A stretch of DNA of 64,000 bases from contig CAVQYJ010000008.1 of assembly GCA_963718145.1 (NCBI GenBank), forward strand, positions 87,066 to 151,065. Reading direction: 5' to 3'. This document shows positions 3,915 through 50,557 of the stretch, piece after piece; position 1 is the stretch's first letter; every line of letters starts with the position of its first letter. The DNA is from an uncultured Alphaproteobacteria bacterium (GTDB lineage Bacteria; Pseudomonadota; Alphaproteobacteria; Caulobacterales; Hyphomonadaceae). The notes under the pieces were generated by a model that saw only the letters and a list, made by a program, of their open reading frames with translations, searched no databases and had not been told where the DNA came from. Position numbers and translations under genes: made by a program.

Positions 3915-3989
3915 AGGATAGACGGCAGGCGCAGGTTCGCGTTTCCGCGCGAGGCCGCGCGGATCGGGATGGGCTGATTGCGGGCTACC

Positions 3990-4844
3990 TCATCCCGAGG
4001 ACCAGTAGGCCGGGAGGATCTCGGATAATCGCGTTCGGGCGGCTTCGTTGGCGTCGCGGGCCAAAGGGGGCTTGTTCGGACCCCGTCGCGGCATGGCAAG
4101 GAGCCAGAGATTGGGGGCGGCCTCCCGGCCGCGGCGCAACCGGAAGGCGAGGCGGCGGACATACGGCGCCGGATCGTTGATCACCCGGATCACGGCTTCC
4201 AGCCGCCGGGCGAGCGGCATCGACTGGTGCTGGACCCTGCGGAAGCGCATGGGCGTGCGCGGATCGCCGCGGAAATGGTCGCGGTCGATCGGCGGCAGCT
4301 TCTTGCGGGGCAGGCGCCAGTGTCTTTCCGCGAGCTTGGCCGGCATGATGCGGAAGGAGACGCGCCAGGTTTCAGGCTGGGTGGGGTCGCAGGCGGGCTT
4401 TTCCTGCGGCGCCCGTGAGGTGCGGATGACGCCGCCCGGGCGCGAGGGCGGCAGGGATTGCGAGCCGGCGAGAGCGAAGGCTTCGATCACCAGCATGCGG
4501 CGCAGCAGCAGCTCGATGGGGCGGAGATAGTCGAGGATCTCGAACTTGCGGAACTGCCAGACGAAATGGTGGAGGGCGAGCGTGGCCGGGCCCCAATAAT
4601 CGCCGACCAGCCAGACCAGCAAGTCGCGTGCGGTGGCGAGGAAGGATGTCGATTGCGGGTCGGCGAGGCAGGGCGGGATCGCTTCATCGCCCTGCGGCAC
4701 GCGCGTTTCGTAGCGGAAGAAGGGGTCGTCGTCGCCGCAATCGCGATGATCCTCGAAGGCGGACGCGACAGATATGCCCGCGCGCAGGTTGTCCGCATGC
4801 GGAGGATCGGCAGTGGGGTTCGTGGTGTTCGGCTCGTTGTTCAT
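3990..4844 (-). CDS. hypothetical protein
   Basis: ORF 3990..4883. The internal ATG at 4844 ('MNNEPNTT') is the likelier start. No family was recognised; the ORF is convergent with ppdK. Confidence 0.45.
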   Translation of the reverse strand: MNNEPNTTNPTADPPHADNLRAGISVASAFEDHRDCGDDDPFFRYETRVPQGDEAIPPCLADPQSTSFLATARDLLVWLVGDYWGPATLALHHFVWQFRKFEILDYLRPIELLLRRMLVIEAFALAGSQSLPPSRPGGVIRTSRAPQEKPACDPTQPETWRVSFRIMPAKLAERHWRLPRKKLPPIDRDHFRGDPRTPMRFRRVQHQSMPLARRLEAVIRVINDPAPYVRRLAFRLRRGREAAPNLWLLAMPRRGPNKPPLARDANEAARTRLSEILPAYWSSG

Positions 4845-5547
4845 GGGCGCAGTATCGCCCCGGCCCGCGCGGTGTAGGGTCAAATGTCCTGCATATTTTT
4901 TCCCATCGTTGATGTTGCGAGAGTTTTTGCGCGCGGGACGCCGACAGGTGTTGGATAAGTCGGGGTGAGGGTCGCGCCGGCCGACCCATCATGGTCCGCC
5001 TGCGTCGCTTTGCGATGACCAGCGGAAAGTCGCCAGCTGTCCCGGCCGGGGATGCCACTGGCTTATCCACAACAGCCTGTTTCCCCAGCGTTCTGCGGTA
5101 ATTGAATTCAATTCGGCGTCAGGACGAATTCCGGCGGGTGTGTTGCCGGAATGCCTGCGCGGCCTATCTGAAGTCCCTGGCGTTGGGCCATCCCGTTGAA
5201 AAAAGGAGCTATTGGTAAACGCAGATCGTTAACGGCTCGCCTGGCACGGGAATTGATGTCCCCCCCAGGTCCGATGGCGCGGGATTTGCGACTTCCAGGG
5301 CAATCAGCCGCAAGGCTTGCCCCGTATCAAAGGCCCAGATAGGGCGGCTGACGTCGCACAGCTCAGAACAGAACACGGCGACGGGTGAAGTGGAGTGTCT
5401 ATCCGAACGCGCGCGGGCGTTCACACGCAATTTGCGTTTACGATGATTAAGGGGAAGCCTGGGGTGTTAGCCCTCGAGAAACCACTGAACCTTATTATCG
5501 CCCATCTCAAGGCGGCGTTCACAGCCGTCGTCAGGTGGTGGTTCACT

Positions 5548-6561
5548 ATGTCTGATGCTGAAAAGCGTCTGACCCAGAAACGCGCGGTCTCGGTGGTTGC
5601 CTGTGTGGCGGTCTTCGCCATGGCTGGCCCGTTCATCGCCCAGCGTTTCGACGTCCAGAAGACCGAAGAAGCCTATCGCGCCGACGCCTATCAGCTTGCC
5701 CAGTCGCTGGGTGCGGGCGGGGCCGAGACTGTGCAGCACGTCTCCTTCACCAACAAGGCGAGTCCCACCGCGCTGTTCCAGTCGGTGTCGTTCGCCCTCA
5801 GCCAGACCTCCGACGTCGGCCTGAAGGCTGTGCCGCTGCGTGAGCGGGACACGATGGTGCTAGCGAGCCTGACCGGCTTTACCGCCCAGAACCTCGGCGC
5901 GGCGTCGCACGAGCAGAGCGAGGCGGACTGCCTCGCCGAAGCCATCTATTACGAAGCGCGTTCGGAGAACGTCAAAGGCCAGATGGCCGTGGCGGAAGTG
6001 GTGATGAACCGCGTCAAGGATCCGCGCTTCCCGAAGACGGTGTGCGCCGTGGTCTACCAGGGCCGCTATCGCGATACCGGATGCCAGTTCACCTTCACCT
6101 GCGACGGCTCGCTGAACAACCCGCCGCAGGGGGAGTCGTGGGATCGTGCCCGGGCGATCGCACTGCACGTGGTCATGGGGCTGAACACGCCCATCACCAA
6201 CAAGGCGACGCACTATCACACCGACTATGTGAACCCGTACTGGAAGGCCGGCCTCGTCGAGACCGCCGAGATCGGCACGCACATCTTCTACCGCTTCCCG
6301 AAGACCGGGCAGGAATGGTCGGATGCGCGCATCGCCCTTGCGGCCCAGAACGGCGAATCGAGCGATGACCAGCCGATCGTTGTCCCGGTCGACCTGCCGG
6401 CCGATGCGGGCATCGCGATCAGCCCGCCGGTCAACGACGCCGACAAGCTGGCGGCGGCGCAGCTCCTGAAGATTTCGGTCACGCAGAAGCCGCAGCCAGT
6501 GGTTGAGCCGATCGCCGCCGCTGCGCCTGCAGGCGCAGCGCCGGATGCGCGAGCGCTTTAG
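5548..6561 (+). CDS. cell wall hydrolase, SleB/Hydrolase_2 family, with N-terminal membrane anchor and Pro/Ala-rich tail
   Basis: 'CLAEAIYYEARSENVKGQMAVAEVVMNRVKDPRFPKTVCAVVYQ...QFTFTCDG...ATHYHTDYVNPYW' is the SleB-type pattern. The start is taken at 'MSDAEKRL' (5548); the ORF is open from 5395. Confidence 0.8.
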   Translation: MSDAEKRLTQKRAVSVVACVAVFAMAGPFIAQRFDVQKTEEAYRADAYQLAQSLGAGGAETVQHVSFTNKASPTALFQSVSFALSQTSDVGLKAVPLRERDTMVLASLTGFTAQNLGAASHEQSEADCLAEAIYYEARSENVKGQMAVAEVVMNRVKDPRFPKTVCAVVYQGRYRDTGCQFTFTCDGSLNNPPQGESWDRARAIALHVVMGLNTPITNKATHYHTDYVNPYWKAGLVETAEIGTHIFYRFPKTGQEWSDARIALAAQNGESSDDQPIVVPVDLPADAGIAISPPVNDADKLAAAQLLKISVTQKPQPVVEPIAAAAPAGAAPDARAL

Positions 6562-7448
6562 GCCTCGAAGTCCAGTCCTACATCCAGGTTGACAGCGCTA
6601 TGCGTCAGCGCGCCGGCAGAAATGTAGTCGACGCCCGTTTCGGCGATGGCTTTCACCGTCTCAAGGCGGACGCCGCCGGAGGCTTCGGTCTTCGACTTGC
6701 CGGCGACGATGGCGACGGCTTGCCTCAGCATGTCCGGCTTCATGTTGTCGAGCAGGATGGCGTCGGGGCTGTGTTTCAGCGCTTCGCGGAGCTGGTCGAG
6801 GCTGTCGACCTCGATCTCGATCATGCGCAGGTGGCCGACGGCGGCCTTGGCGCGCCTCATCGCTTGCGCGACGCCCCCGGCGGCGGCGATGTGGTTGTCC
6901 TTGATGAGGATCGCGTCGTCGAGCCCGAGGCGGTGGTTGACGCCGCCGCCGATGCGCACGGCGCGCTTCTCCAGCGCGCGGAAGCCAGGCGTGGTCTTGC
7001 GCGTGCAGGTGATCTTGGCGTGCGTGCCTTTCACTTCCGCCACGAATTTCGCCGTGAGGGTGGCGACGCCTGACAGCGGGCCGATGAAGTTGAGCAGGGT
7101 GCGTTCGGCGGTCAGCACGGAGCGCGCGCTGCCTTCGATGCGGATGAGCTGGGCGCCTTTGGCGAAGGGGACGCCTTCGCTGATCAGCGTGGTCCATGTC
7201 GCGTCGGGATCGACCAGCTTGAGCGCAAGCCGCGCGGCATCGTAGCCAGCGGCGAGGCCGGGCTCGCGGGCGCTGACGACGGCGGTCATGCGCGTCGTGG
7301 CGGGGATGACCGCGTCGGTCGTGATGTCGCCGCCTCGGCCGAGATCTTCCTGGAGGGCGAGACGCACCAGCGGCTCGATGATGATGTCCGGCAGGGGGGC
7401 GTTCGGCAACATGTCGCCGGACGTGATGGTCTGGATCAGGTCGGTCAT
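6558..7448 (-). CDS. nadC: nicotinate-nucleotide diphosphorylase (quinolinate phosphoribosyltransferase)
   Basis: 296 aa with 'EDLGRGGDITT', 'AERTLLNFIGPLSGVATLT' and 'TRKTTPGFRALEKRAVRIGGGVNHRLGLDDAILIKDNH'. The ATG at 7448 overlaps the nadB stop (ATGA). Confidence 0.93.
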   Translation of the reverse strand: MTDLIQTITSGDMLPNAPLPDIIIEPLVRLALQEDLGRGGDITTDAVIPATTRMTAVVSAREPGLAAGYDAARLALKLVDPDATWTTLISEGVPFAKGAQLIRIEGSARSVLTAERTLLNFIGPLSGVATLTAKFVAEVKGTHAKITCTRKTTPGFRALEKRAVRIGGGVNHRLGLDDAILIKDNHIAAAGGVAQAMRRAKAAVGHLRMIEIEVDSLDQLREALKHSPDAILLDNMKPDMLRQAVAIVAGKSKTEASGGVRLETVKAIAETGVDYISAGALTHSAVNLDVGLDFEA

Positions 7449-12307: not shown

Positions 12308-12883
12308 TCAGCCGTTCGGCCGACAGGACGAGAAGGCCACGCCCTGCGCCTTGAAGACATTGGCGAGAAAGGCCGCGCGGCGGCCCGTGGTGCGCTTGTA
12401 GATCACGACCACGTAGGGATACGCGCCGGGGGTGCAGTACGTGGTGCGTTCGGCGTCGCCCTTGGCGGACGTATCGACCTGGCCCCGAGTGAAGGCGGCG
12501 CGCGCCTGCATCAGCGCGAGGGCGGCGTCGGAGAGCTGCTGCGGATTGCCCATCTCGATCGACATCGAGCAGGCGCCGCCGGGCAACAGCATCACATAGG
12601 CGATGTTCTGCGTGCTGATCCGCCAGGCGTCGGTGGCGGTAGGGGAGCCCGTCTTGCTTGCCGGGACGATGGGCTTTGCATCCGGCATGGCGGCCATGAG
12701 ATCGCGCAGCGGCTTGCCCTCCATGATGCTGGTGAGACAGCCGCCGTCGAGCGCCTGCTTCTGCAGGGCGAGGGCTGGGCGCATGATGGTCCCGGAGCTT
12801 TCGAGGTCGAGGCGCGCGCTGTCCACCATGCCGGTGCAGGCAGATGCCGCCAGGACGGCGAGGCATGCGACGGCGTGGCGCAT
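12308..12883 (-). CDS. hypothetical lipoprotein
   Basis: Start at 'MRHAVACLAVLAASAC' (lipobox LAASAC) within ORF 12308..13033. No family was recognised. Confidence 0.55.
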   Translation of the reverse strand: MRHAVACLAVLAASACTGMVDSARLDLESSGTIMRPALALQKQALDGGCLTSIMEGKPLRDLMAAMPDAKPIVPASKTGSPTATDAWRISTQNIAYVMLLPGGACSMSIEMGNPQQLSDAALALMQARAAFTRGQVDTSAKGDAERTTYCTPGAYPYVVVIYKRTTGRRAAFLANVFKAQGVAFSSCRPNG

Positions 12884-13200
12884 GAGATCCTGCCAACAAC
12901 GCGGAACGCTGGTCGCTGCTTCGAATGGTGTCAATCGACGACGAGCGACATGAACGGATGTCCTCTTCCCACGAGCGGGAGTATAGTGATCTCCGGAAAT
13001 AATTCGCAGACTTTTGGCCCGGCTCCGGTGCACAAGTTAGAGCGGCAGGGAAGCGGACGCTTCGTGCCGTTTGTCATCTTTCCTGGCTAAGACGCTGATT
13101 GGCCCAATCCTGACATTTGAAAGAGCCGCTTCGGATCGCGTTGCAAGATGGTGCTTTGGGAATATTCTTCAGAACGCGTTTGTTGGGTTGGGGTGATTCA

Positions 13201-14222
13201 ATGCGCTTTGCAGCTGTGACGGCCTTCGCGCTTTTGATTGCGACGCTCTCGTCGTGCACGCTCCTGATTCCCGCGCGCAGCTTTGACCTCTACACGACGC
13301 CACAGCAGCGCGTTGCGATCGGGGCTGACCGTCACATCCACATGGTGTGCATGGGAGATGGAAGCCCGACGGTAATCTCAGTGCGGGCGCCAGCGGATGG
13401 TCAGCCGATTGGCGCCTGGTTCAACCCAAGATCGCCTGGACCACGAAGGTGTGCGCCTGGGATCGCGCCGGCCACGGCTTCAGCAGTGGCAGCCCTGACC
13501 CGCAGGACATCCTCCATACTGAAGACGATCTTGAGCGGGCGCTTGCCGCCGTGAGACTGGATGGCCCTCTGGTGATGGTCGCTCACTCGCTGGGCGCCTT
13601 CGAGACACTCCTCTTCGCCGACCGCCACCCAGATCGCGTAGCGGCCATGGTGCTGGTCGATCCATCGACGCCGGATCAGGTCGAAGAGTATGCACGTGCC
13701 GCGCCGGCGCTCATGGCTTGGTCCGCGAAATCGGACGAGCAGTCTTTCGACCGGGTCCGCTCGTGCATCAGGGCACAGAGACGCGCCGGCGAAGGTCCGC
13801 CGCCTGACTGCGCCAGCCTCCATTCCTACTACCCGGAACCGCTGCGCACAAATCTCCTCATGGCCGCGAATGAGCCCGTGTACTGGGAGGCGTACCTGTC
13901 GCTCTTCGGCCTGCGCGAGCGCAATTCGAAATTGGTGATCAATGAAAAGCGGAACTATGGGGCGATGCCGCTGATCGTGCTGAACGCTGGTCTCTACAGC
14001 TTTCCAGCGGCGCCGGCGGAGGCGCAAAGAGAGGCCCCGGCTTTAAGGACCGTGATCACGGCCGGGCACGAAGCGATAGCGCGCCTGTCCAGCCGCGGCG
14101 TCATGGAGACGGTCCCGGACTCTGCTCACGGGATCGCCGTCCAGAAGCCGCAGGTTGTTATCGAAGCAATCGAAAGGGCTATCGACGCAGCTCGAGCGAA
14201 CGCCACAGCGCTTCATCCCTGA
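13201..14222 (+). pseudogene. alpha/beta hydrolase with lipoprotein-type signal peptide; 1-nt frame break near 13375-13380
   Basis: 'MRFAAVTAFALLIATLSSC...RHIHMVCMGDGSPTVI' (frame of 13117..13554) continues as 'SAGASGWSADWRLVQPKIAWTTKVCAWDRAGHGFSS...VAHSLGAF' (frame of 13347..14222). The span is 1022 nt = 3n+2. Confidence 0.75.
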
Positions 14223-27546: not shown

Positions 27547-27633
27547 TGGTACGGGCGGCCGGGGTCGAACCGGCACTTCCTTACGGAAAACGGATTTTAA
27601 GTCCGTTGCGTCTACCAGTTCCGCCACGCCCGC
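27547..27633 (-). tRNA. tRNA-Leu (anticodon UAA), type II with long variable arm and encoded CCA
   Basis: The reverse complement is GCGGGCG-TG-GCGGAACTGGTAGACGC-A-ACGGA-CTTAAAA-TCCGT-TTTCCGTAAGGAAGT-GCCGG-TTCGACC-CCGGC-CGCCCGT-A-CCA. All four stems pair; 1:72 is a G-U pair. Confidence 0.93.
27595..27633. repeat. 39-nt direct repeat, copy 1 (tRNA-Leu nucleotides 1-39, inside the intact gene)
   Basis: TTTTAAGTCCGTTGCGTCTACCAGTTCCGCCACGCCCGC is identical to 30174..30212. Confidence 0.95.
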
Positions 27634-27859
27634 ACACCAAACAGATCAAGGAGTTCTGGCCTACTCCTTGGTAAAGATCGACAGCTCAAACCGCGAACTG
27701 GACCACGAATTGGACCAATTTGCGGGAGGATGCGGCCGGCGATGTTCCGTCAGCGTTCCTGTCAATGTCCAACCTGTGCTGCGACGCGCCTAGATGGATC
27801 AATGGCCTGGGTTCGTCTACCGCCCGGGGTGACAATCAACGCGCTTGCAACATGACGCG

Positions 27860-29134
27860 TCACCTCAAGAGAATAGACGCTCTGCTGAACACATTTGACG
27901 ACGCACAAGCATTCCCGTCGCCCGATGCACTTAGACCCGGAGCACTTTCCAGGTCACTTGCGGTCAAGCGCGACAGTGCCCCCGACAACGTTGTGGCGCA
28001 AATCCGGGAAACCAACTCCGCCGACGTTTCGAGAAGGGTCGAGTCAATGGCCCAAATGCGTGCCGTATCGCCCTCCGACCCGGCGATTATTCGGGAGCCG
28101 TCGCTGCTGAATGCGATGCTGCTGACTCCGCCACGGAGTCCCTGGTAACTCGCTACCTCGCGAACGCTGACGCTGTCCCACAGGCGCACGCTTCCGTCTC
28201 GCAAACCAACGGCGATGTACTTTCCATCGGCGCTAAAGGCTGCGGCGGTTACGTCACCCCCGAACCCAGTCATCGTAGCGAGGCGGTCGCCATTGTTGGC
28301 GTTGGCAATAACTGCACGACGCGCATCTTCCCAGGTCAGGACACGACTGCCATCTGGGCTGACAGCAGCAGAACCCTTCCAGGTTGTGATTTGAACGCCA
28401 CCTACACTCCACATGACGTTTGTTTCTGCTCGTTTCCCCGGCTGTTCTGTGCAGCAGGTTACGACGTGCATACCGTCAGGCGTGAAGCCCGTGCCCTCGC
28501 GGTAAGTCTGGCCCGCTGCACCTGCCACTTTCGCGACTTCGCGGCCATTGCTCGCGTCGAAGATGTGAGTCGCATCGCCCGCAGACTCCGTCACCATGCC
28601 CACGAAAGAAACGAGGACATGCGTGCCGTCCGGACTGAAAGCAGCGTAGCTCGCTCGGCTTTCTGGTATAGGCAACGTCAACAGATGTTGCCCACTCTTG
28701 GCGTCCCATATGGAAGCGTCTTTCGACGCTGTTAGAACTTTCGCCCCATCAGGACTAAACATTGCTGACGCAACGCCGCCCGAATGTGTGAGAGTGGCGA
28801 TCAAATGACCATCTGACACATTCCAAACTCGCGCTGTGTTGTCGCCCTCAGAGTCATTTATGGGCGCTGATCTCGTCACTACCCTGGTGCCATCGGCGCT
28901 GAACGCACCGCCTGCGACCACTCCTTTGTGACCAGCGAGAGTCACAATTCGTGCGCCTGTGCCCGCGTCATAAACCCACGCACTGCTCGAAAAGGGCTCG
29001 TTGGCCCAGACGAGCAACCGCGTTCCGTCGCCACTTAGGACCGAGTTGTCGAGCCCGTATTTCAGAAGGGCTATCTGTCGGCCCTTACTCACATCAGTTA
29101 TTCGGCTGTTAAGCTCGACCCACACGCTGACCAA
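27860..29134 (-). CDS. WD40-repeat protein (beta-propeller only)
   Basis: Repeated units such as 'GHKGVVAGGAFSADGTRVVT...ARVWNV', 'HSGGVASAMFSPDGAKVLTAS...IWDA', 'VTAAAFSADGKYIAVGLRDGSVRLWD' and 'GGVSSIAFSSDGSRIIAGSEGDTARIWA'. The only start is a TTG at 29134, and the frame is open upstream to about 29164 without an ATG. Confidence 0.8.
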   Translation of the reverse strand: MVSVWVELNSRITDVSKGRQIALLKYGLDNSVLSGDGTRLLVWANEPFSSSAWVYDAGTGARIVTLAGHKGVVAGGAFSADGTRVVTRSAPINDSEGDNTARVWNVSDGHLIATLTHSGGVASAMFSPDGAKVLTASKDASIWDAKSGQHLLTLPIPESRASYAAFSPDGTHVLVSFVGMVTESAGDATHIFDASNGREVAKVAGAAGQTYREGTGFTPDGMHVVTCCTEQPGKRAETNVMWSVGGVQITTWKGSAAVSPDGSRVLTWEDARRAVIANANNGDRLATMTGFGGDVTAAAFSADGKYIAVGLRDGSVRLWDSVSVREVASYQGLRGGVSSIAFSSDGSRIIAGSEGDTARIWAIDSTLLETSAELVSRICATTLSGALSRLTASDLESAPGLSASGDGNACASSNVFSRASILLR

Positions 29135-29161
29135 GCTGATCTGCTGGATCGGATTGACGAG

Positions 29162-30022
29162 TTGCTAGACGACGTCCGAGCGGAGGATCGTCAAGCAGAG
29201 AGCGAATTTCAGATGCTGGCTTGGTCCCCAGATACTCGTGGGTTCCTAAAGTCGGCGCGACGCAATCTCAACTGGCGGCAAAGTCGCCTTGATCGCACTC
29301 TGATGGGTGCAGTGTTGGTGCATCTCCACGGCAAGGCCGGCGAAGGCCTCTCCAACCAGCTTCGCCAATCGAAAGCTATGGCACCAGACTATTCGGTGCG
29401 CTGGTGGCGGAAGCGTGATCTTCACCCGCCTGAGTTCAGCGTCAGAAAGTTTTTCAAGGCGAGGCTCGCCTGGCGGTACAAGAAAGGGATTCCGCTAAAG
29501 CGGGGGACGGCGCGGGTCCGTCTTGGAGATTCGCGAAAAGCATTCTCGAAGATAGACGACTTCGCCGCCGACCTGATCTTGACCTCCCCGCCCTATTGCG
29601 GAGTCACGAACTACGAATACGACAATTGGATGCGTCACTGGATGCTAGGGGGGCCACACCTTCCAAGCTTCAAATTGGCGTCGCGCTTCGTTGATCGGGA
29701 GCGGTATCGCCAGCTCATTACCGGCGTTCTCACAGAATCGTCGCGCTTGTCCGCCGAGACGGTCCGGGTCTATTTGAGAACGAGCGCCCAACGCTTTTCG
29801 ACGCAAGTGGCTATCGATGCAATTCGCGAAGTTTGGCCGGATCACCGTTTGTTGTGTCGCTTCGACAAAGCCAAAGGGCCGACCCAAACCGCCCTATTCG
29901 GGAATGATTGGAAGAAAGTCGGCGAGGTAGACCTGTTGGCGTTGCCCAAGGGCAAGCACGCTCCTGAAGGATTTGAGCTGATCAATCGGTCATCGCGGTT
30001 GGCATGGCTCGACGGTGGCTAG
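29162..30022 (+). CDS. N4/N6 DNA-methyltransferase-like protein; motif IV present, no recognisable AdoMet-binding motif I
   Basis: 'FAADLILTSPPYCGVTNYEYDNW' is the (D/S)PPY catalytic motif. No FxGxG/'DPFxGSGTT' was found anywhere in the 286 aa. TTG start at 29162, with the first ATG at 29213. Confidence 0.5.
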   Translation: MLDDVRAEDRQAESEFQMLAWSPDTRGFLKSARRNLNWRQSRLDRTLMGAVLVHLHGKAGEGLSNQLRQSKAMAPDYSVRWWRKRDLHPPEFSVRKFFKARLAWRYKKGIPLKRGTARVRLGDSRKAFSKIDDFAADLILTSPPYCGVTNYEYDNWMRHWMLGGPHLPSFKLASRFVDRERYRQLITGVLTESSRLSAETVRVYLRTSAQRFSTQVAIDAIREVWPDHRLLCRFDKAKGPTQTALFGNDWKKVGEVDLLALPKGKHAPEGFELINRSSRLAWLDGG

Positions 30023-30173
30023 CGTCCGTTCGAGCTGGACCAATTTCTGGACCAAACATCGATACGACCAGGCGGAAACAGATGTCTTGAGCGTTTTCCG
30101 CGCGAGGCCAAAAGCCCTGTAAAGTCGAGCGTCTTCCCATTCGTTGAGATCAGGCAGAAGCACTCGGTTAGAG

Positions 30174-30212
30174 TTTTAAGTCCGTTGCGTCTACCAGTTC
30201 CGCCACGCCCGC
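30174..30212. repeat. 39-nt direct repeat, copy 2 (orphan 5' half of tRNA-Leu)
   Basis: Identical to 27595..27633; the flanks diverge immediately on both sides. Confidence 0.95.
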
Positions 30213-43404: not shown

Positions 43405-44181
43405 CTACTGCGCCACCCACCCGCCGTCGATCGACAGCGCCGTTCCGTTGATCTGGCTGGCGGCATCGGTCGTCAGGAACACGGCGAGCTGGGCGATGTC
43501 CTCGACCCTGACGAACTCCTTGGTCGGTTGCGCCGCCAGGATCACGTCGCGGATCACCGCCTCCGGCGTGATGCCCCGGGCCTTCGCCTGGTCGGCGATC
43601 TGCCCTTCCACCAGCGGCGTCTTCACATAGCCCGGGCAGATCGCATTGACGCGGATGCCGAAGGTCGCCCCCTCCAGCGCCGTCGTCTTGGTGAAGCCGA
43701 GCAGGCCGTGCTTGGCCGCCACGTATGCCGACTTGAAGGGGGAGGCCACCAGCGCGTGCGCCGAGGCGATGTTGATGATGCGACCCCATTTCTGCGCCTT
43801 CATGCCGGGGAAGGCGAGGCGCGTGGTGTGGAAAGACGAGGTCAGGTTGAGGTTGATGATCAAATTCCACTTGTCGACCGGGAAGTCCTCCACCGGCGAG
43901 ACGTGCTGCACGCCGGCATTGTTGACCACGATGTCGACCGCGCCGAATTTTTCCTTCGCCATGGCGAACAGCGCCTCGATCTGCTCCGGCTTCGTCATGT
44001 CGGCGCCAGAGTAGACGCAGCTCACCTTGCTGTCCTTTTCGATGCCGGAGCGGATCTTCTCGATCGCTCCCGCATCGCCAAACCCGTTGAGAACGATGTT
44101 GCAGCCCGAAGCCGCCAGCGCCCGCGCAATCCCCTCGCCGATGCCGCTGGTGGAGCCGGTGACAAGGGCGGTGCGGGGCAT
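43405..44181 (-). CDS. bdhA: 3-hydroxybutyrate dehydrogenase (SDR)
   Basis: 258 aa with 'ALVTGSTSGIGEGIARAL', 'NNAGVQHVSPVEDFP', 'SAHALVASPFKSAYVAAKHG' and 'NAICPGYVKTPLV'. Confidence 0.88.
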   Translation of the reverse strand: MPRTALVTGSTSGIGEGIARALAASGCNIVLNGFGDAGAIEKIRSGIEKDSKVSCVYSGADMTKPEQIEALFAMAKEKFGAVDIVVNNAGVQHVSPVEDFPVDKWNLIINLNLTSSFHTTRLAFPGMKAQKWGRIINIASAHALVASPFKSAYVAAKHGLLGFTKTTALEGATFGIRVNAICPGYVKTPLVEGQIADQAKARGITPEAVIRDVILAAQPTKEFVRVEDIAQLAVFLTTDAASQINGTALSIDGGWVAQ

Positions 44182-44487
44182 CCGGCGTTTCCTCTGCCGC
44201 GCCTTCCGGCGCTGTGGATCTGCGCGTGTTTCGTTCAGAGCCGCAGCGCGGGCCGCCAGCTCTTCCGGACTTAGCGTCATCGCGCTTCTTGACACCCGCC
44301 TTCTCGCTCCCGGCTTCCGCGAGCGCAAGCCGCGTTATCGATTATCGAAAAAAATCTTCAGCCAATCCCTTGTCGGCGAGGCGAGAGTGGTCACGTATTG
44401 ACGAGACGCGGGCATCGGCTCAATCCGGCGAGCGTCGCGCGCGGCGTTCGCCTGCGCGCCAGGGGTCTTTCACGAGGAGTTGCGACA

Positions 44488-45672
44488 ATGGCCGGCAGCC
44501 CGACTGCGCTTCAGTATCTCGACAAGGCGATGGGATCGTTGAGGCAGCTCGGCCTCCTGCCCGAGAAAAAGGGCGATCCTGCGCCGGTGGTGGCGCTGCT
44601 CAACCAGATCACGGACTTGCAGCCCGACAAGGTCACGGCCATCGCGCGGACGCTCGACCAGGCCTCGCACTTCAACGATGTCGTCCGCGAGCACGTCTCT
44701 GCGATCACGGTGGGCGAGCGCTACGAGGCGATCAACACCGCCTTCAACTCGATCCGCGACGACGCCAAGTCGCTCGTCGACCAGTATGCCGACGGCAAGG
44801 TCTCGACGATGGAGCGCGTCTCCAACATGTGGATGAAGTTCTCGCGCGGCGACATCGCGGCGCGGTTCGGCAAGATCAAGACGCTCTATCTCGACGTGCA
44901 GAAGGAAACCAAGCTGCAGATCGAGAAGGAACACCTGATCCTCGAAGCCTACATGGATTTCCGCGGCGCGATGAAGCAGTCGGAAGTCATGGCGCTCGAC
45001 GTGCTGAAGACGGCCGAAGGCAAGCTCGAAGCGGCCAAAGCCGTGATGACGGCGGCGTCGGATAAGGTCGCGGGCTATGTCGGCGCCGACCCGGCCGAGC
45101 GCGCCCAGCTCGAACTGGCGCGCGACGAGGAACTGCGCCGCCTGCAGGCGGAAGAGAAACGCTACCAGGTCGCCAAGGATCTCTCGGACAATCTCACGGT
45201 CGGCTACAACACGTCGGAAGTGATCATGGCGCGGCTGGTGCAGACCACCAACGCCAAGGAGCGCATCTACTCGCAGTCCGTGTCGTTCTTCGGCACCAAC
45301 GAGGTTGTGCTCACGGCGCTGACGGCGACGTTCACCGGCATGCACGGCCTGCATGAATCCACGCAGACGCTCGAAGCCATGAAGAAGGGCGTCGACCAGT
45401 CCCTCGAAGTGCTCGCCGAAATCGGCGGCAAGGTGCAGGAAGCCGCCCTCAAGGCCGGCTATGGCCCGACGATTTCCGCGGCGGCGGTCAAGAAGCTGGT
45501 CGACAGCGTCGTCAACTACCAGGAGCGCTCGATCGGCATCATCGCCGAGATGCGCAAGCTCGCGACGGCCAACTCCGCCGAAATCCGCGACGCGGTGGAA
45601 GACGGCAAGAAGCGCATGGCTCACCTCATCGAACAGGGCGCAGCCGCGGCGCTGACCATCAAGACGTCGTAG
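44488..45672 (+). CDS. coiled-coil protein, TelA/YaaN (toxic-anion-resistance)-like
   Basis: 394 aa, all-helical. Its architecture and segments resemble my memory of TelA ('FGKIKTLYLDVQKETKLQIEKEHLILEAYMDF...', 'ARLVQTTNAKERIYSQS...', 'VVNYQERSIGIIAEMRKLATANSAEIRDAVEDGKKRM'). GAGGAG lies upstream of the ATG. Confidence 0.45.
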   Translation: MAGSPTALQYLDKAMGSLRQLGLLPEKKGDPAPVVALLNQITDLQPDKVTAIARTLDQASHFNDVVREHVSAITVGERYEAINTAFNSIRDDAKSLVDQYADGKVSTMERVSNMWMKFSRGDIAARFGKIKTLYLDVQKETKLQIEKEHLILEAYMDFRGAMKQSEVMALDVLKTAEGKLEAAKAVMTAASDKVAGYVGADPAERAQLELARDEELRRLQAEEKRYQVAKDLSDNLTVGYNTSEVIMARLVQTTNAKERIYSQSVSFFGTNEVVLTALTATFTGMHGLHESTQTLEAMKKGVDQSLEVLAEIGGKVQEAALKAGYGPTISAAAVKKLVDSVVNYQERSIGIIAEMRKLATANSAEIRDAVEDGKKRMAHLIEQGAAAALTIKTS

Positions 45673-45783
45673 AATGCATGCTCGCCTACACTCCGGGACC
45701 GCCGGGCGCCTGCCCGGCAGATCGCGCGGTCGCGCGATGCCGCAGCAATGCAGCGTAGTTTCTGGAAGCGGCCTTTTGGCCGC

Positions 45784-45897
45784 GTCCCCCGCGAAGGTGG
45801 GAGTCCAGGGGCTCCAGGCGAAGTCTGTGCAACAGGCGATATGCGCCCCAGGCGAGATTGTTGACGCGGCCCCTGGGTCCCTGCCTTCGCGGAGAAC
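45784..45897. repeat. second REP/MITE-like element with 28-nt imperfect inverted arms (21/28) related to the 1073..1201 element
   Basis: The left arm GTCCCCCGCGAAGGTGGGAGTCCAGGGG (45784..45811) pairs with the reverse complement of 45870..45897 (GTTCTCCGCGAAGGCAGGGACCCAGGGG). It shares the ...CGAA.G..GGGA.(T/C)CCAGGG core with 1078..1102. Confidence 0.55.
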
Positions 45898-45942
45898 GCG
45901 GAGACCGACGTCTCCGCTTCCAGTCGGAGGCGCTGTCTTGCC

Positions 45943-46887
45943 ATGACCGACACCCTTGTCCCCGCCAAGGCCGCCTCAACGGAAGTCGCCGCCCCCGAAC
46001 CCCGCAAGCTTGATGACGTGCTGCTCGCGATGGATGTCGTCGACACGCTGCGCCACCGCACGCGCGTCGTCGATATGGAGCTGAATGCGGAGGCGCGGGA
46101 GGAACAGCTCATCGCGCGGCTGAAGGAAATCTACGGCGCCCAGGGCATCGAAGTGCCCGAGAAGATCCTGAAGGACGGCGTCAAGGCGCTGGAGGAACAG
46201 CGATTCACCTACAAGCCGCCCGAGAACACGCTTTCGGTGAAGCTGGCCAAGCTCTACATCACCCGCGGCAAATGGGCGCCGGTTGCGGGCCTGCTGGCGA
46301 TCATCCTCATCGTCGGCTCCAGCGTGGGCTGGTTCGCCCAGCGAGCCGGCGCCGCCGAGCTGCGCGGCCTGCCGGCGCAGATAACTCGGCTCTCCACCGA
46401 GGGGCAGGCGCTGGCGGTCGATCCTGCGGTTGACGCCCGGATCGCGGCGATGGAGCGGACCGGACTGCGCGCGGTTGAGCAGAAGGACACGGGCGAGGCC
46501 AAGGATCAGGTCGCGTCCCTCCGGGATATCAACGACCAGCTGGCTTCGGAATACGATGTGCGCATCCGCTCGGGGGCCAACGAGGACACCGGCTTCTACC
46601 GCACGCCGTCGTCGAATCCGGCCGGCAGGAACTACTATCTGGTCGTCGAGGCGGTGGCGCCCGGCGGCGGGACGGTCAACGTGCCCGTGAAGGACGAGGA
46701 GACGCAGAAAGTCGAGCGCGTTTCCCGATGGGCCCAGCGCGTCAGCGTCGAGACGTTCGACAAGGCGAAGAACGAAAAGCTGGGCACGGGCATCATCTCC
46801 AACGACATTCTCGGCCACAAGTCGCGCGGCGACCTCGATCCGAAATACGACGTGCCGACGCCGGGCGGGGCGATCACCAAATGGTAG
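45943..46887 (+). CDS. single-pass membrane protein of unknown function
   Basis: 314 aa: a cytoplasmic helical N-domain, TM 'WAPVAGLLAIILIVGSSVGWFA', and a C-terminal extracytoplasmic domain. Its stop overlaps the next start by 7 nt. Confidence 0.65.
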   Translation: MTDTLVPAKAASTEVAAPEPRKLDDVLLAMDVVDTLRHRTRVVDMELNAEAREEQLIARLKEIYGAQGIEVPEKILKDGVKALEEQRFTYKPPENTLSVKLAKLYITRGKWAPVAGLLAIILIVGSSVGWFAQRAGAAELRGLPAQITRLSTEGQALAVDPAVDARIAAMERTGLRAVEQKDTGEAKDQVASLRDINDQLASEYDVRIRSGANEDTGFYRTPSSNPAGRNYYLVVEAVAPGGGTVNVPVKDEETQKVERVSRWAQRVSVETFDKAKNEKLGTGIISNDILGHKSRGDLDPKYDVPTPGGAITKW

Positions 46888-48449
46888 ATGACGTCATCAC
46901 CGGGCGCGATGCGCTGCACAGGCTGGACTCGCTGACGGCCGGCGCGCGCGAGGAGTTCGATTTGGCCGCCCGCGGCGCCGAAGGCCATTCGCGCCGGCGC
47001 GCCGATCTCGCGCGGTTGAAATCGGAAGGCTATCGCGAACTCGCCCACATGCGGCTCGATGTCATCAAGGCCGGCGCCCAGGACAGGCTCAGCGAAGCGG
47101 AGCAGAAAGCGAAGCGTCTTCTGGCCGACCACGAGGTCTTTGTTTCGACCATCGGCGGCAAGGTCGAGAAGGCCGCCGCAGTGCTTGCCGAGGTCGAGGC
47201 GCGCCGCCGTGCGGCCGAAGGCGAGGCGGATGTCGCGCTGGCCGCCTATGAGAAGCTGACCGCCGAAACCGAAAGGGAAGTCGAGAGCGATCCGGCTTAT
47301 GTCGCACTGCGCCAGGGGCTCGAGAGCGCCAATGCCGTGGTCGGACGCGCAACCCAGAAGCTGGAACTGGCGAAGACGGATCGCCAGGCCAAGAGCCAGC
47401 CCTACGAGACCGATCCGCTGTTCTCCTATCTGTGGAAGCGCAAATTCCGCACGACGGAATATCGCGGCGGCGGGCTGACGCGCGCGCTCGACAACTGGGT
47501 AGCCAAGCTCTGCCGCTATGACGAGGCGTATCTCAACTATGCGCGGCTGACCGAACTGCCGGACCGCATCGGCGAGCATCTCGCAAGCATGAAGCTGGAA
47601 GCCGCCGAATCCGAAGCTGCGATCGAGCGGTTCGAGGCGGCGAAACTTGAAGAAAAAGGCGCCGGCAAGCTTTCGGCGGCAGTGGCTGCGGCGAAAGCGA
47701 AGCTGAAGGCGCTGGACGATGAACTTGCGGCGGCGGAAGCGACGCATTCCGGACTGCGCGTACAGCAGGAAAAGGCCGCCAGCGGCGATGCCGGCCCGCA
47801 GGAGCAGGCGCGGCTCGTGCTCGAGGAAGGGCTGGCGAAGGCGAGCTTCCCCGACCTGAAGGTTCTGGCGGCGGAGACGACGACATCGGACGACGACCGG
47901 TTGGTCGATGCGCTGATCAAGCTGCGCACCGAGGAACTGCAGATGGAAGTGAACTGGCGCAATGTCGAGGCGCTGCCGGCGCGGCGCCGGGCAGGCGCGG
48001 ACACGCTGGAGCAGGTTCGTCGGCGGTTCAAGCAGGCAGGCCTGGACGGTCCCTATGTGACCGTGCTGCGCGGGGCGTTCGAGGCGGCGCTGCAGGCCTA
48101 TGGCTCGGGCCACTCGCCGGATGGCGAAAAGCTGTGGCGGGCGATCCTCGCCACCATCCGCCAGGCTCCGCGCGACGACGACGACTATTTCGGAGGCCGC
48201 CGGCGCGGGCGGAATGTGGGCATGGGTGGAGTTATTGCCGGCGTCATCCTCGACGAAGTGGTGCGCGAGCTGGGGCGCGGCGGGCGCGGCCGCTGGCGCG
48301 GTGGCGGCGGTGGTGGCTGGGGCGGCGGCTTCGGTGGCGGTTTCGGCGGTGGCGGCGGCGGCGGGAGCAGTGGCGGCTTCGGCGGGGGAGGTTTCAAGAC
48401 CGGCGGCGGCTTCGGCGGCGGCGGCTTCAAGACCGGCGGAAAGTTCTAG
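46881..48449 (+). CDS. long coiled-coil protein with hydrophobic segment and poly-Gly/Phe C-terminal tail
   Basis: 522 aa from 'MVDDVITGRD'; the ORF is open from 46728. The tail is 'GMGGVIAGVILDEV...GGGGGGWGGGFGGGFGGGGGGGSSGGFGGGGFKTGGGFGGGGFKTGGKF'. Confidence 0.65.
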   Translation: MVDDVITGRDALHRLDSLTAGAREEFDLAARGAEGHSRRRADLARLKSEGYRELAHMRLDVIKAGAQDRLSEAEQKAKRLLADHEVFVSTIGGKVEKAAAVLAEVEARRRAAEGEADVALAAYEKLTAETEREVESDPAYVALRQGLESANAVVGRATQKLELAKTDRQAKSQPYETDPLFSYLWKRKFRTTEYRGGGLTRALDNWVAKLCRYDEAYLNYARLTELPDRIGEHLASMKLEAAESEAAIERFEAAKLEEKGAGKLSAAVAAAKAKLKALDDELAAAEATHSGLRVQQEKAASGDAGPQEQARLVLEEGLAKASFPDLKVLAAETTTSDDDRLVDALIKLRTEELQMEVNWRNVEALPARRRAGADTLEQVRRRFKQAGLDGPYVTVLRGAFEAALQAYGSGHSPDGEKLWRAILATIRQAPRDDDDYFGGRRRGRNVGMGGVIAGVILDEVVRELGRGGRGRWRGGGGGGWGGGFGGGFGGGGGGGSSGGFGGGGFKTGGGFGGGGFKTGGKF

Positions 48450-48458
48450 CGCCAAGTG

Positions 48459-48968
48459 TCAGGCGAGCCCCTTGGCTTTAAGTTGTTCCAGCAGCTTACC
48501 TTTCCATTCGTGGTCCTCACCGTAGGCGTCGAACATCACTCCGCCTAGGTCGGATGGCATGTCGAATTTCGGCCACGGCGCCTCTGCAGGCTTTTGCAGT
48601 ATGAAGACACTGTCCCATCCGAGCCGCCCGGAGAAGAAGCCGAGCTCTAGAATGACATTTTGCCGCGCGCGATACTGAAGGGCCTTTTCGCCACCCTTCG
48701 GATGTTCGAATTCCCTTCGGCTGGCGGCAACGTCGTCCGAAGTCATCAGGACGATAGCAAATTTGGCCTGGCCACCGATTGCTTCAAACTTCTCGAAAAG
48801 TGTGCGCTCCTTCGTGTTGGTCTTCTTTAGGATGACGGGCTCGACCTTGTTGCTGCGCAGGAATCCCGCGACGTCGGCCATCATCTCTTCGTCGTGGCCA
48901 TGTACGAGGAAGACGGAATGGGCAGAGTTGGCGCTTAGTTCCGGATTGTCCTTGGCTTGCCTGATCAA
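48459..48968 (-). CDS. TIR-like nucleotide-binding domain protein (COG4271 / CAP12-PycTIR effector-type)
   Basis: 'SVFLVHGHDEEM...FAIVLMTSDDV...RARQNVILELGFFSGRLGWDSVFIL...MPSDLGGVMF' matches the family pattern as I remember it. The only start is a TTG (48968), and the frame is open upstream to 49073. It may be the C-terminal domain of a frameshifted fusion with the next ORF. Confidence 0.7.
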   Translation of the reverse strand: MIRQAKDNPELSANSAHSVFLVHGHDEEMMADVAGFLRSNKVEPVILKKTNTKERTLFEKFEAIGGQAKFAIVLMTSDDVAASRREFEHPKGGEKALQYRARQNVILELGFFSGRLGWDSVFILQKPAEAPWPKFDMPSDLGGVMFDAYGEDHEWKGKLLEQLKAKGLA

Positions 48969-49404
48969 CTCTGCAATCGACTGGACCGACTGCGAGTTCG
49001 ATCGAAACCTCGCGTGCGTGTGGCAGCGGGGAAACCTGATCCGTGATCCGGCGCGCGATCTCCGCGGGCTCGCTTAGGTCCGAAACGTCGAGCCACTGGA
49101 GATCGGCGGCAAATGGAATCTCGCGCGGGTCGACATCGTCCAGGCCGACGGGAATTACTCGCTTGCCCGCCGCTCTAGCAATCTCAATTTCCTGACGCTG
49201 CTGCTGGGCCGTTGTTGAGTTGCGTGACAGGAAGGCGATGATGACGTTGGCTTCCGACATCTTGTGGGAGAGCTGCCGCTCATATGCGTCGCCCGCACGG
49301 ACCATCTGGTCCCACCAGACCTTGTGTCCGTTTGCAACAAGCGACTCGGCAATTCCGGCAACGCGATCACGGTCCGTCCGCCGATATGAAAGGTACAGTA
49401 GCAT
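48784..49404 (-). CDS. TIR domain protein (TIR_2-type); the tail after ~49000 is probably out-of-frame read-through
   Basis: 'MLLYLSYRRTDRDRVAGIAESLVANGHKVWWDQMVRAGDAYERQL...ANVIIAFLSRNS...QQRQEIEIARAAGKRVIPVGLDD'. The last ~70 aa are Arg/Pro/Gln-rich and overlap the TIR-like ORF by 185 nt. Confidence 0.7.
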   Translation of the reverse strand: MLLYLSYRRTDRDRVAGIAESLVANGHKVWWDQMVRAGDAYERQLSHKMSEANVIIAFLSRNSTTAQQQRQEIEIARAAGKRVIPVGLDDVDPREIPFAADLQWLDVSDLSEPAEIARRITDQVSPLPHAREVSIELAVGPVDCRVDQASQGQSGTKRQLCPFRLPRTWPRRRDDGRRRGIPAQQQGRARHPKEDQHEGAHTFREV

Positions 49405-49450
49405 ACCGCTTAGGCTATACTACTCGTCATTGCCGGGACAGGTGGAACCC

Positions 49451-50557
49451 ATGGGCGCGCGCGTAATCGTGGAGCGGCTGGACTGGACGGACATCAGGCT
49501 CGATGCGATCGACCTGCCCAAGGCGAAGCTGCAGCTGACGCTGGGGCTGGGGTCGGGGCTGTCGGCGCGCGGAGGCCGGGTGTTCGCGGTGACGGACCGG
49601 GGACCGAACCTGTTCGTGTCGCAGGCGGTGGACGATTACGGCCTCGTAAGCCTTGAGCGGCTGCGCGGCGGCGATGCGAAGGTGATGCCTGCTCCGCAGA
49701 TGGGTGCGGAGATCGTCGAGGTGGCGGTGGTGGGGGGCGTGGTGCGCGTGGTGCAGCGGATGGTGCTGCGGACGGTGTCGGGCGCGCGGCTGAAGGGCGT
49801 GGCGCTGCCGGGCGGCGAGATGGAGGCCGTGTACGACCTGCATGGCGCGCCGCTGGCGGGGGATGTGTTGGGTGCGGATACGGAGGCGATCGCCGTGATG
49901 CCCGACGGTGGGTTCATGGTGGCGGAGGAGTATGGGCCGTCGGTGCTGAAGGTGGATGCGAACGGCGTGGTGACCGAGCGCTGGGTGGTCGAGGGGCAGG
50001 AGCAGGCGATGGCGCACCCCGATCTGCAAGTGAGCGGCGTGCTCCCAAACCGCGCCGGCAAGCGGCGGCGCAATCGCGGGTTCGAAGGGCTGTGCGCGTC
50101 GGAGGATGGCCGCCACCTCTATGTGGGGTTCCAGAGCGCGCTGAGGGGTGAGGATGAGCGCTCGGCTCCGATCTGGAAGCTGGACGCGCGAAGCGGCGAG
50201 TTCGAAGGCGAATACCTCTACCCGTTCGATGCGCCATCGAGCTTCCTTCGTGACGCCAGGCGCCGGAAGGTCAACGAAGGCGATCTCAAGATCTGCGAAC
50301 TGGCATGGGCGGGCAAGGACCGGCTGGTCGTCCTCGAGCGCATCTCGCACTCGGCAAAAATCTACCTGGCGCCGCTGAAAGACCTTCCGGCCAAGCGCCT
50401 GCTGTTCTCAAGCGACGACCATCCGCAGATCGGCCCGGACATCGAGGGAATGGCGCTGATCTCGCCCGGAGAACTCCTGATCTGCTCCGATAACGATTTT
50501 GGCGTCGAGGGCGCGAAGACGGAATTCTGGCGGATCACGCTTGGGGAAACCCTCTAG
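49451..50557 (+). CDS. esterase-like-activity-of-phytase family protein
   Basis: 'NRGFEGLCASEDGRHLYVGFQSAL' and 'DIEGMALISPGELLICSDNDFG' are typical of the family. Start at 'MGARVIVERL' within ORF 49220..50557. Confidence 0.65.
   Translation: MGARVIVERLDWTDIRLDAIDLPKAKLQLTLGLGSGLSARGGRVFAVTDRGPNLFVSQAVDDYGLVSLERLRGGDAKVMPAPQMGAEIVEVAVVGGVVRVVQRMVLRTVSGARLKGVALPGGEMEAVYDLHGAPLAGDVLGADTEAIAVMPDGGFMVAEEYGPSVLKVDANGVVTERWVVEGQEQAMAHPDLQVSGVLPNRAGKRRRNRGFEGLCASEDGRHLYVGFQSALRGEDERSAPIWKLDARSGEFEGEYLYPFDAPSSFLRDARRRKVNEGDLKICELAWAGKDRLVVLERISHSAKIYLAPLKDLPAKRLLFSSDDHPQIGPDIEGMALISPGELLICSDNDFGVEGAKTEFWRITLGETL

Follow-up and report, generated by a model that had tools for sequence, protein, structure and literature searches.

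Results

A low-GC locus encoding two TIR domains

The DNA analyzed here, referred to as the window, is a 64,000-nt stretch of contig CAVQYJ010000008.1 from an uncultured member of the Hyphomonadaceae (assembly GCA_963718145.1). [quoted passage not shown]

48459..49404, minus strand: two-TIR gene; sequenced length 946 nt, or 945 nt (314 amino acids [aa] and a stop codon) once one base is removed
48784..49404, minus strand: ORF1, 206 aa, ATG start
48459..48968, minus strand: ORF2, 169 aa, TTG start; frame open up to the stop at 49074-49076

ORF1 and ORF2 share 185 nt, and together they span 946 nt. On one side, 9 nt separate the gene from the stop of a convergent gene (48449), and on the other 46 nt separate it from the ATG of a divergent gene (49451). 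A first-pass annotation, made by a model from the sequence alone, had given this placement, and the same values were obtained when the coordinates were re-derived; the overlap, the TTG start of ORF2, its frame open to 49073 and the length of the span were all found again. The patch is also poorer in G+C than its surroundings, as had been reported, with GC contents of 0.55–0.61 in 300-nt windows within it versus 0.63–0.73 outside. Taken as a whole, its GC content is 0.580 against a mean of 0.652 for the full stretch (standard deviation 0.029), the 25th lowest among 1262 windows of 946 nt, and GC at third codon positions (GC3) is 0.69 in the two-TIR gene versus 0.80–0.89 in six neighbouring genes. 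Scanning 48300-49700 for promoters yielded no site; the only terminator-like match there was at chance level.

Identity of the locus as a single gene

It is near certain that the locus holds one gene with two TIR domains, carrying one extra base and inserted at an operon junction. In the public protein collection searched, ORF2 is on record as P0193 (169 aa, TTG start) and ORF1 is not on record; in the contig index, no exact match was obtained for the ORF1, ORF2, DUF6384 or phytase-like proteins. P0193, identical to ORF2, represents a 90% cluster whose second member, P0258, comes from a JGI metagenome, where a 1,071-bp contig, L127, carries the gene as one uninterrupted ORF. The minus strand of the window and L127 are 94% identical in DNA sequence (alignment A4), and the alignment spans both junctions of the gene, covering the stop of the convergent gene, P522, plus 9 nt at one end and the 46-nt spacer plus the start of a phytase-like gene at the other. 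Inside the gene, A4 contains a single indel:

48997..48998, minus strand: extra base; TT on the plus strand (T in L127), GAAC versus GAC on the minus strand

With one base removed, a clean 314-aa ORF results that includes 'AREVSIDSQSVQSIAEL', as in P0258, and is 95% identical to the matching part of the L127 protein. The single extra base accounts for the public 169-aa gene call, which is an artefact.

The corrected, fused protein retrieved 2868 homologues, the best 120 of which were all single proteins of 265–484 aa (most 316–350) with both PF13676 and PF10137. When the family profile was run against 1.84 billion cluster representatives, 2845 matches were obtained at E <= 1e-30, and about 70 of the best 150 were end-to-end matches of 300–350 aa. 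The frame-specific GC3 signal switches inside the interdomain linker. The earlier proposal that one extra base had split a single 314-aa tandem protein is borne out by the intact, 94%-identical L127 copy and by hundreds of one-ORF homologues, but the position it favoured, an A-run at 49005-49007, was wrong: the L127 alignment puts the extra base 8 nt away. The same alignment ruled out the G/A runs near 49030-49036.

Between the window and L127, 52.5 synonymous and 14.5 non-synonymous differences were counted, with a synonymous divergence (dS) of 0.29. The ratio of non-synonymous to synonymous divergence (dN/dS) was 0.07 across the gene, 0.10 in its N-terminal part and 0.05 in its C-terminal part. 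Purifying selection has acted on both halves of the two-TIR gene; the break must therefore be very recent, or else a consensus or assembly error. We found no consistent frameshift in approximately 20 kb of other syntenic genes compared with 27 relatives, only single-locus antisense-ORF artefacts, so the assembly is not generally indel-ridden. As sequenced, the gene has been either freshly inactivated or mis-assembled by one base.

We regard these two explanations as evenly balanced. A real and recent frameshift, which would make the locus a dead (pseudogenised) defence gene here, is favoured by the location of the extra base in a 2-nt run rather than a long homopolymer and by the clean appearance of the assembly across the syntenic genes. 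It would also fit with the frequent loss of costly NADase genes and with the 27 of 27 related species representatives that lack the two-TIR gene. However, the low dN/dS and the otherwise intact ORF require that any inactivation was very recent, and a single-base consensus error stands on the other side of the balance.

Domain architecture and candidate catalytic residues

The corrected protein comprises two TIR domains of different types joined by a linker.

49030..49404, minus strand: N-terminal TIR_2 domain, aa 1-125 (PF13676, 6.6e-21)
49189..49191, minus strand: Glu72 codon, candidate catalytic Glu of the N-terminal TIR ('QQRQEIEIA'), from conservation and profile-PDB alignment
48927..49029, minus strand: interdomain linker, aa 126-159 (~35 aa), with a conserved helix at aa 137-151; holds the frameshift
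48462..48926, minus strand: C-terminal CAP12/PycTIR-type TIR domain, aa about 160-314 (PF10137, 1.4e-28)
48645..48647, minus strand: Glu253 codon, candidate catalytic Glu of the C-terminal TIR ('RQNVILELGFF'), invariant in 107 sequences

Both domains had been recognized in the first-pass annotation, including a Glu in the upstream one, and profile searches agreed. ORF1 matched Pfam TIR_2 (PF13676) over aa 4-116 with 75.5 bits (threshold 28), and ORF2 matched CAP12-PCTIR_TIR (PF10137) with 99.7 bits (threshold 24.7). Conservation in the two domains was read from an alignment of 107 sequences (A3), and a further alignment (A1) was also used. In the N-terminal domain, S6, Y7, D11, D32, G38 and E72 are each at least 90% conserved in A3, and E72 is invariant in A1. 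In profile-PDB alignments, E72 falls on the Glu of the W..E(L) motif in Cat1, AbTIR and TIR-STING. The conserved C-terminal positions are HGHD (168-171), DD (223-224), R245, R247, N249, E253 and PSD (283-285), all invariant or nearly so. E253 aligned residue for residue with E86 of the Cap12 chain 9lmq (numbering counted from chain residue 53), which we take to be ElSTING. E86 is the catalytic residue of ElSTING, and its alanine mutant serves as a dead control (PMC12421889). Both TIR domains therefore carry a conserved Glu in the alpha-C region, as in NADase-type TIRs, and these residues are predicted to be catalytic.

An AlphaFold2 model built on the 107-sequence alignment (mean predicted local distance difference test score [pLDDT] 84, predicted template modelling score [pTM] 0.61) contained two alpha/beta domains, aa 1-125 and about 160-314, with a low-confidence linker between them. 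The pLDDT was mostly 76-98 in the N-terminal TIR and 56-61 in the linker, where an 'SV..IA...R' motif, read in the ORF2 frame, is conserved. A Foldseek search of the PDB returned BtpA/TcpB, PdTIR, AbTir, SARM1 and SPARTA TIR-APAZ, together with the TIR-STING structures 9lmq and 7un8. Against PDB sequences, the family profile matched in two separate segments: its N-terminal half matched Cat1, metazoan TIR-STING, AbTIR and the SARM1 TIR (1e-13 to 1e-7), and its C-terminal half matched Cap12 9lmq.

Insertion at the P522/phytase-like junction

The two-TIR gene interrupts a gene order that is conserved in related genomes.

48450..49450, no strand assigned: inserted segment, 1,001 nt; splits the P522/phytase-like junction; GC 0.58 versus the window mean of 0.652
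46881..48449, plus strand: P522, 522 aa, coiled-coil with a Gly-rich tail and no Pfam family; last gene of up424-DUF6384-P522, convergent with the two-TIR gene
49451..50557, plus strand: phytase-like gene (PF13449), coupled to the P522 stop in relatives and cut off from it here by the insert

Alignment with the P522 protein retrieved 27 related loci, nearly all from Hyphomonadaceae metagenome-assembled genomes, at 67-77% identity; a search for related loci with the DUF6384 protein alone, which is less conserved than P522, gave no matches. The usual order in these relatives is up424, DUF6384, P522 and phytase-like, followed by a convergent PhoD gene. A phytase-like match follows P522 in 19 of the 27, and PhoD comes directly after P522 in five. 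The two-TIR gene is absent from all 27 loci. In 18 of the related Hyphomonadaceae loci, the phytase-like start lies only -8 to +1 nt from the P522 stop, a spacing that suggests translational coupling. Because the two genes abut in relatives, the window carries a 1,001-nt insert exactly at that junction. The two-TIR gene is the only gene in the insert. An AGGTGG motif 5 nt upstream of the phytase-like ATG also lies within it. A repeat search at 48450/49450 found neither a target-site duplication nor terminal repeats, inverted or direct.

Horizontal acquisition is the best explanation of the two-TIR gene. The presence/absence comparison agrees with the first-pass view of the patch as an insertion, in that all 27 related genomes lack it, but the insertion is not a one-off event: in other lineages, too, the P522 3' end is occupied by divergent alleles from this subclade. 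Among relatives of the gene with retrievable context, the most similar are likewise convergent with the 3' end of P522, but their junctions differ. In the P0005 locus (46% identity; L128), P522 is followed after 0 nt by the two-TIR gene and then by PhoD, with no phytase-like gene. In the P0003 loci (50% identity; L001-L006), the order is P522, a C-terminal remnant of the phytase-like gene, the two-TIR gene and then DUF1993. Three different junction structures are therefore present among close relatives at this site, and the GC content of the two-TIR gene is below that of its flanks at the window, L128 and L001-type loci. The phytase-like remnant covers only aa 312-364 (called as a 33-aa ORF) at L001 4303-4460 and is also seen in L002-L004 and L006; it is evidence of deletion or rearrangement at the P522 locus in the L001-L006 lineage. 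Distant family members (<= 39% identity; approximately 85 loci) were never found beside the up424-DUF6384-P522 operon. Recurrence at P522 could mean that cassettes are exchanged at a hot spot, that a long-resident gene is often lost, or that gene and operon are linked in function; a functional tie of this kind might hold for the Hyphomonadaceae subclade, which was always found beside the operon.

The up424-DUF6384-P522 unit itself (window 44488-48449 and L012-L038) is conserved across the Hyphomonadaceae, with identities to the window of 81-91% for up424, 54-72% for DUF6384 and 67-77% for P522. The tail of P522 is a Gly-rich 'GGGFGGGGFKTGGKF' repeat, and both up424 and P522 look coiled-coil. 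Searches with up424, DUF6384, P522 and the phytase-like protein gave no match in PADLOC or NCBIfam, and in Pfam only DUF6384 and Phytase-like were found. At the opposite end of the operon, three relatives have a gene for a different, 265-aa protein inserted between a short-chain dehydrogenase/reductase (SDR) gene and up424. A TIR_2 domain (3.4e-22) forms the N-terminal part of this protein; approximately 140 aa at its C terminus gave no Pfam match. The SDR gene (43405..44328) and up424 (44488..) are adjacent in the window.

L012 5963-6766, L033 about 5960-6760 and L037 6613-7410, strand not stated: 265-aa TIR_2 gene, assigned by Pfam

Family distribution and gene neighbourhoods

The corrected protein aligned end to end with P0001-P0006 (44-53% identity) and about 100 others. 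Family members are usually about 315-350 aa long and carry the JGI name 'predicted nucleotide-binding protein'. The combination of TIR_2 with a CAP12-type TIR is widespread and defines a sizeable family that is uncharacterised in the literature searched: searches covering paired or tandem TIR domains, TIR proteins that stand alone, and PycTIR/Cap12 found no paper on the two-TIR architecture, and full-text searches for PDC-S35 and COG4271 returned nothing. One full-length family member lies on an IMG/VR viral contig.

Gene neighbourhoods were sampled from seven gene-annotated contexts and 80 metagenome loci. The seven annotated contexts have no neighbour in common, and all-versus-all ORF clustering of the 56 loci that had 2 kb or more of flanking sequence revealed no recurrent neighbour gene, the largest cluster covering five loci. 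Among 148 neighbouring ORFs, the commonest Pfam families were TIR_2 (7), TPR-S (4), patatin (3) and NUDIX (3), and PADLOC matches included AriA, PtuA, LmuB, mad3, HEC-01A, AbiLi and a type IV restriction enzyme. Defence-type neighbourhoods were present in a minority of family loci.

Two groups of neighbours are described here as separate observations. SLATT/DUF4231-type ORFs occur at L052 5352-5933 and in L055, L059, L118 and L119, approximately 3 kb from the two-TIR gene; these five loci form two near-identical groups, and the ORFs are neither adjacent to the gene nor general in the family. In L009, which holds a distant member, a 1058-aa DUF4062-AAA_16-TPR protein (STAND-like), a phage-type integrase and a TIR_2-FGE-sulfatase fusion are encoded nearby (3581-6757, 12632-13768), and the neighbourhood looks like a small conflict island.

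Comparison with known TIR-based systems

The first-pass annotation had reported no cyclase, ThsA or STAND partner and a poor fit to the canonical Thoeris, CBASS and Pycsar layouts. Both statements stood: no such partner is encoded in the insert or its flanks, the flanking genes are present in 27 genomes without the two-TIR gene, and the defining partner genes or domains of the three systems were not found.

The closest likeness is to Cap12 of cyclic oligonucleotide-based antiphage signalling systems (CBASS). The C-terminal domain of the two-TIR protein belongs to the same Pfam family (PF10137) and fold, and has in common with Cap12 the 'PSDL' motif and 'R.NV..E.G.F.G.LG', in which E253 aligns with the catalytic Glu of ElSTING, E86; activation through TIR stacking is presumably also alike. 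Whereas Cap12 proteins are TIR-STING (e.g., ElSTING/SfSTING) or TIR-SAVED, the two-TIR protein has neither a STING nor a SAVED sensor, and its CAP12-type TIR is C-terminal, following another TIR domain. The composite active site of TIR-STING forms only within a filament (PMC12421889), and a TIR-SAVED effector has been found to work without its cyclase (10.1101/2025.06.19.660554). The NCBIfam Cap12 equivalogs, which have a cut-off of 450 bits, scored only 29 (NF050172) and 25 (NF050171). Membership of CBASS was rejected: there is no cGAS/DncV-like nucleotidyltransferase (CD-NTase) gene in the insert or flanks, and the protein has only TIR_2 and PF10137 domains.

PycTIR of Pycsar also carries an effector domain of this Pfam family at its C terminus, but the N-terminal domain of the two-TIR protein is TIR_2 rather than the PycTIR N-terminal region, and there is no domain binding cyclic nucleotide monophosphates (cNMP). 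The PADLOC PycTIR model (5e-12) matched only in its TIR part, positions 131-261 of 288. With no adjacent PycC cyclase and no PycTIR N-terminal region, Pycsar membership was also rejected.

A third comparison is with PADLOC PDC-S35, which has the linker helix and the CAP12-type TIR in common with the two-TIR protein; both are single-gene and about 260-320 aa long. All five PDC-S35 models matched the corrected protein (best 3e-43), but in its C-terminal part only. The window protein spans only profile positions ~100-255 of 264 with 146 bits, whereas true PDC-S35 proteins (ORFs in L124 and L126) reach 239-287 bits over positions 9-262 of 264, and it was not assigned to PDC-S35. The difference lies in the N-terminal region of approximately 110 aa, which in PDC-S35 has no TIR_2-type match and looks helical, and where the two-TIR family has TIR_2.

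The Thoeris protein ThsB resembles the N-terminal domain, also a Glu-bearing bacterial TIR, with weak similarity to the ThsB models: PF08937 scored exactly at its cut-off of 21.2 bits, PADLOC ThsB gave 1e-4, and NCBIfam ThcB4 gave 28.5 against 220. A Thoeris assignment was not retained, there being no adjacent ThsA-type or other effector gene and ThcB4 scoring far below its cut-off. SpbK, from Bacillus subtilis ICEBs1, is likewise a single, partnerless protein in which an N-terminal domain is joined to a TIR; it has one TIR domain and a small non-TIR N-terminal sensor, and is likened here by function, not by sequence beyond the TIR fold. The NADase of SpbK is switched on when the phage portal clusters SpbK so that its TIRs form a composite site (PMC12847820).

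Another low-GC patch in the window

A second low-GC patch, at window 27547-30200 (0.567-0.573 in 946-nt windows), adjoins a tRNA-Leu(taa) gene at 27547-27633 on the minus strand. It is probably a small tRNA-linked genomic islet.

27860..29134, minus strand: 424-aa ORF, looks WD40/beta-propeller-like
29162..30022, plus strand: 286-aa ORF with an 'SPPY' DNA-methyltransferase-like motif

Discussion

From its domain content and conserved residues, we consider it probable, though well short of assured, that the two-TIR protein is a stand-alone, single-gene abortive-infection enzyme that would act by depleting nicotinamide adenine dinucleotide (NAD). The TIR domains of Cap12, PycTIR, Cat1 and SpbK are active only when stacked head-to-tail, forming a composite active site. 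In the proposed mechanism, the C-terminal CAP12-type TIR would be the NAD+-depleting effector, and the second, N-terminal TIR would take the place of the usual ligand sensor (a STING, SAVED, cNMP-binding or CARF domain). The N-terminal TIR may sense a trigger, nucleate assembly or do both, and might itself cleave NAD+. Activation would be by oligomerisation, as in the SpbK model, in which clustering leads to a composite TIR site.

Several points weigh against this interpretation. The copy in the window is frameshifted and may do nothing in its source genome, there is no candidate for the trigger or the sensor surface, and the division of labour between the two Glu-bearing TIR domains is a guess. 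No measured activity of any family member was found in the literature searched. The neighbourhood data support an association of the family with defence only qualitatively, and many family members lie among ordinary metabolic genes.

A different arrangement, in which the N-terminal TIR makes a ThsB-like signal derived from ADP-ribose (ADPR) that activates the C-terminal domain in its own or in adjacent molecules, is unlikely. The N-terminal domain does keep its catalytic Glu and the TIR_2 core motifs, its scores at the PF08937 cut-off and against PADLOC ThsB point weakly in the same direction, and both domains are under purifying selection. However, CAP12-type TIRs are known as catalytic effectors rather than ligand receptors, and no sensor of the SLOG, Macro, STING or SAVED type was found in the protein with Pfam or in the AlphaFold2 model. 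We give a similarly small chance to a broader one-protein TIR pathway, in which two competent TIRs of different clades would cooperate, through an N-terminal TIR signal or through heterotypic head-to-tail composite sites, with a possible tie to the operon in addition.

It is decidedly unlikely that the protein has no defence role and is instead an NAD- or nucleotide-metabolising or regulatory protein, or a partner of the up424-DUF6384-P522 operon. The metabolic neighbours of many family members would fit such a role, as would the convergence of all three diverged subclade alleles on the P522 3' end and the presence of another TIR gene flanking the opposite end of the operon in three relatives. 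Yet the operon is conserved in 27 genomes without the two-TIR gene, distant family members never neighbour it, its proteins match no defence or other named family, and the patchy, low-GC, accessory pattern of the gene is the usual one for defence cargo carried at hot spots. Finally, it is very improbable that the two ORFs act as separate proteins, a TIR_2 protein with an out-of-frame tail and a 169-aa CAP12-type TIR translated from the TTG at 48968: the public gene call P0193 and the stand-alone C-domain-sized entries among the cluster representatives could be taken in its favour, but we reject a two-gene reading on account of the intact, single-ORF sister copy and of homologues that are fused near and far, both products would lose the conserved linker helix, ORF1 would bear a 70-aa nonsense tail, the promoter scan gave no site, and no convincing ribosome-binding site was seen ahead of the TTG.

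The stand-alone NAD-depleting enzyme thus remains our preferred interpretation of the two-TIR protein, and the locus is informative in other respects. It offers a clean example of acquisition, with a 1-kb cassette placed exactly on an operon junction and different alleles recurring at the P522 3' end, and a lesson for annotation, in that a 169-aa public gene call with a TTG start stems from one extra base. A systematic survey of Thoeris in 2025 explicitly discarded stand-alone TIR proteins (10.64898/2025.12.03.692087). The two-TIR family shows that, among the proteins set aside by this survey, the latest systematic one of TIR immunity in bacteria, one class is both large and conserved and evolves under purifying selection. 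In the two-TIR family, the ligand sensor of Cap12 and PycTIR is replaced by a second Glu-bearing TIR. If active, the two-TIR protein would add a new single-gene system to the NAD-depleting defences, and it would allow the cooperation of two unlike TIR domains to be tested.

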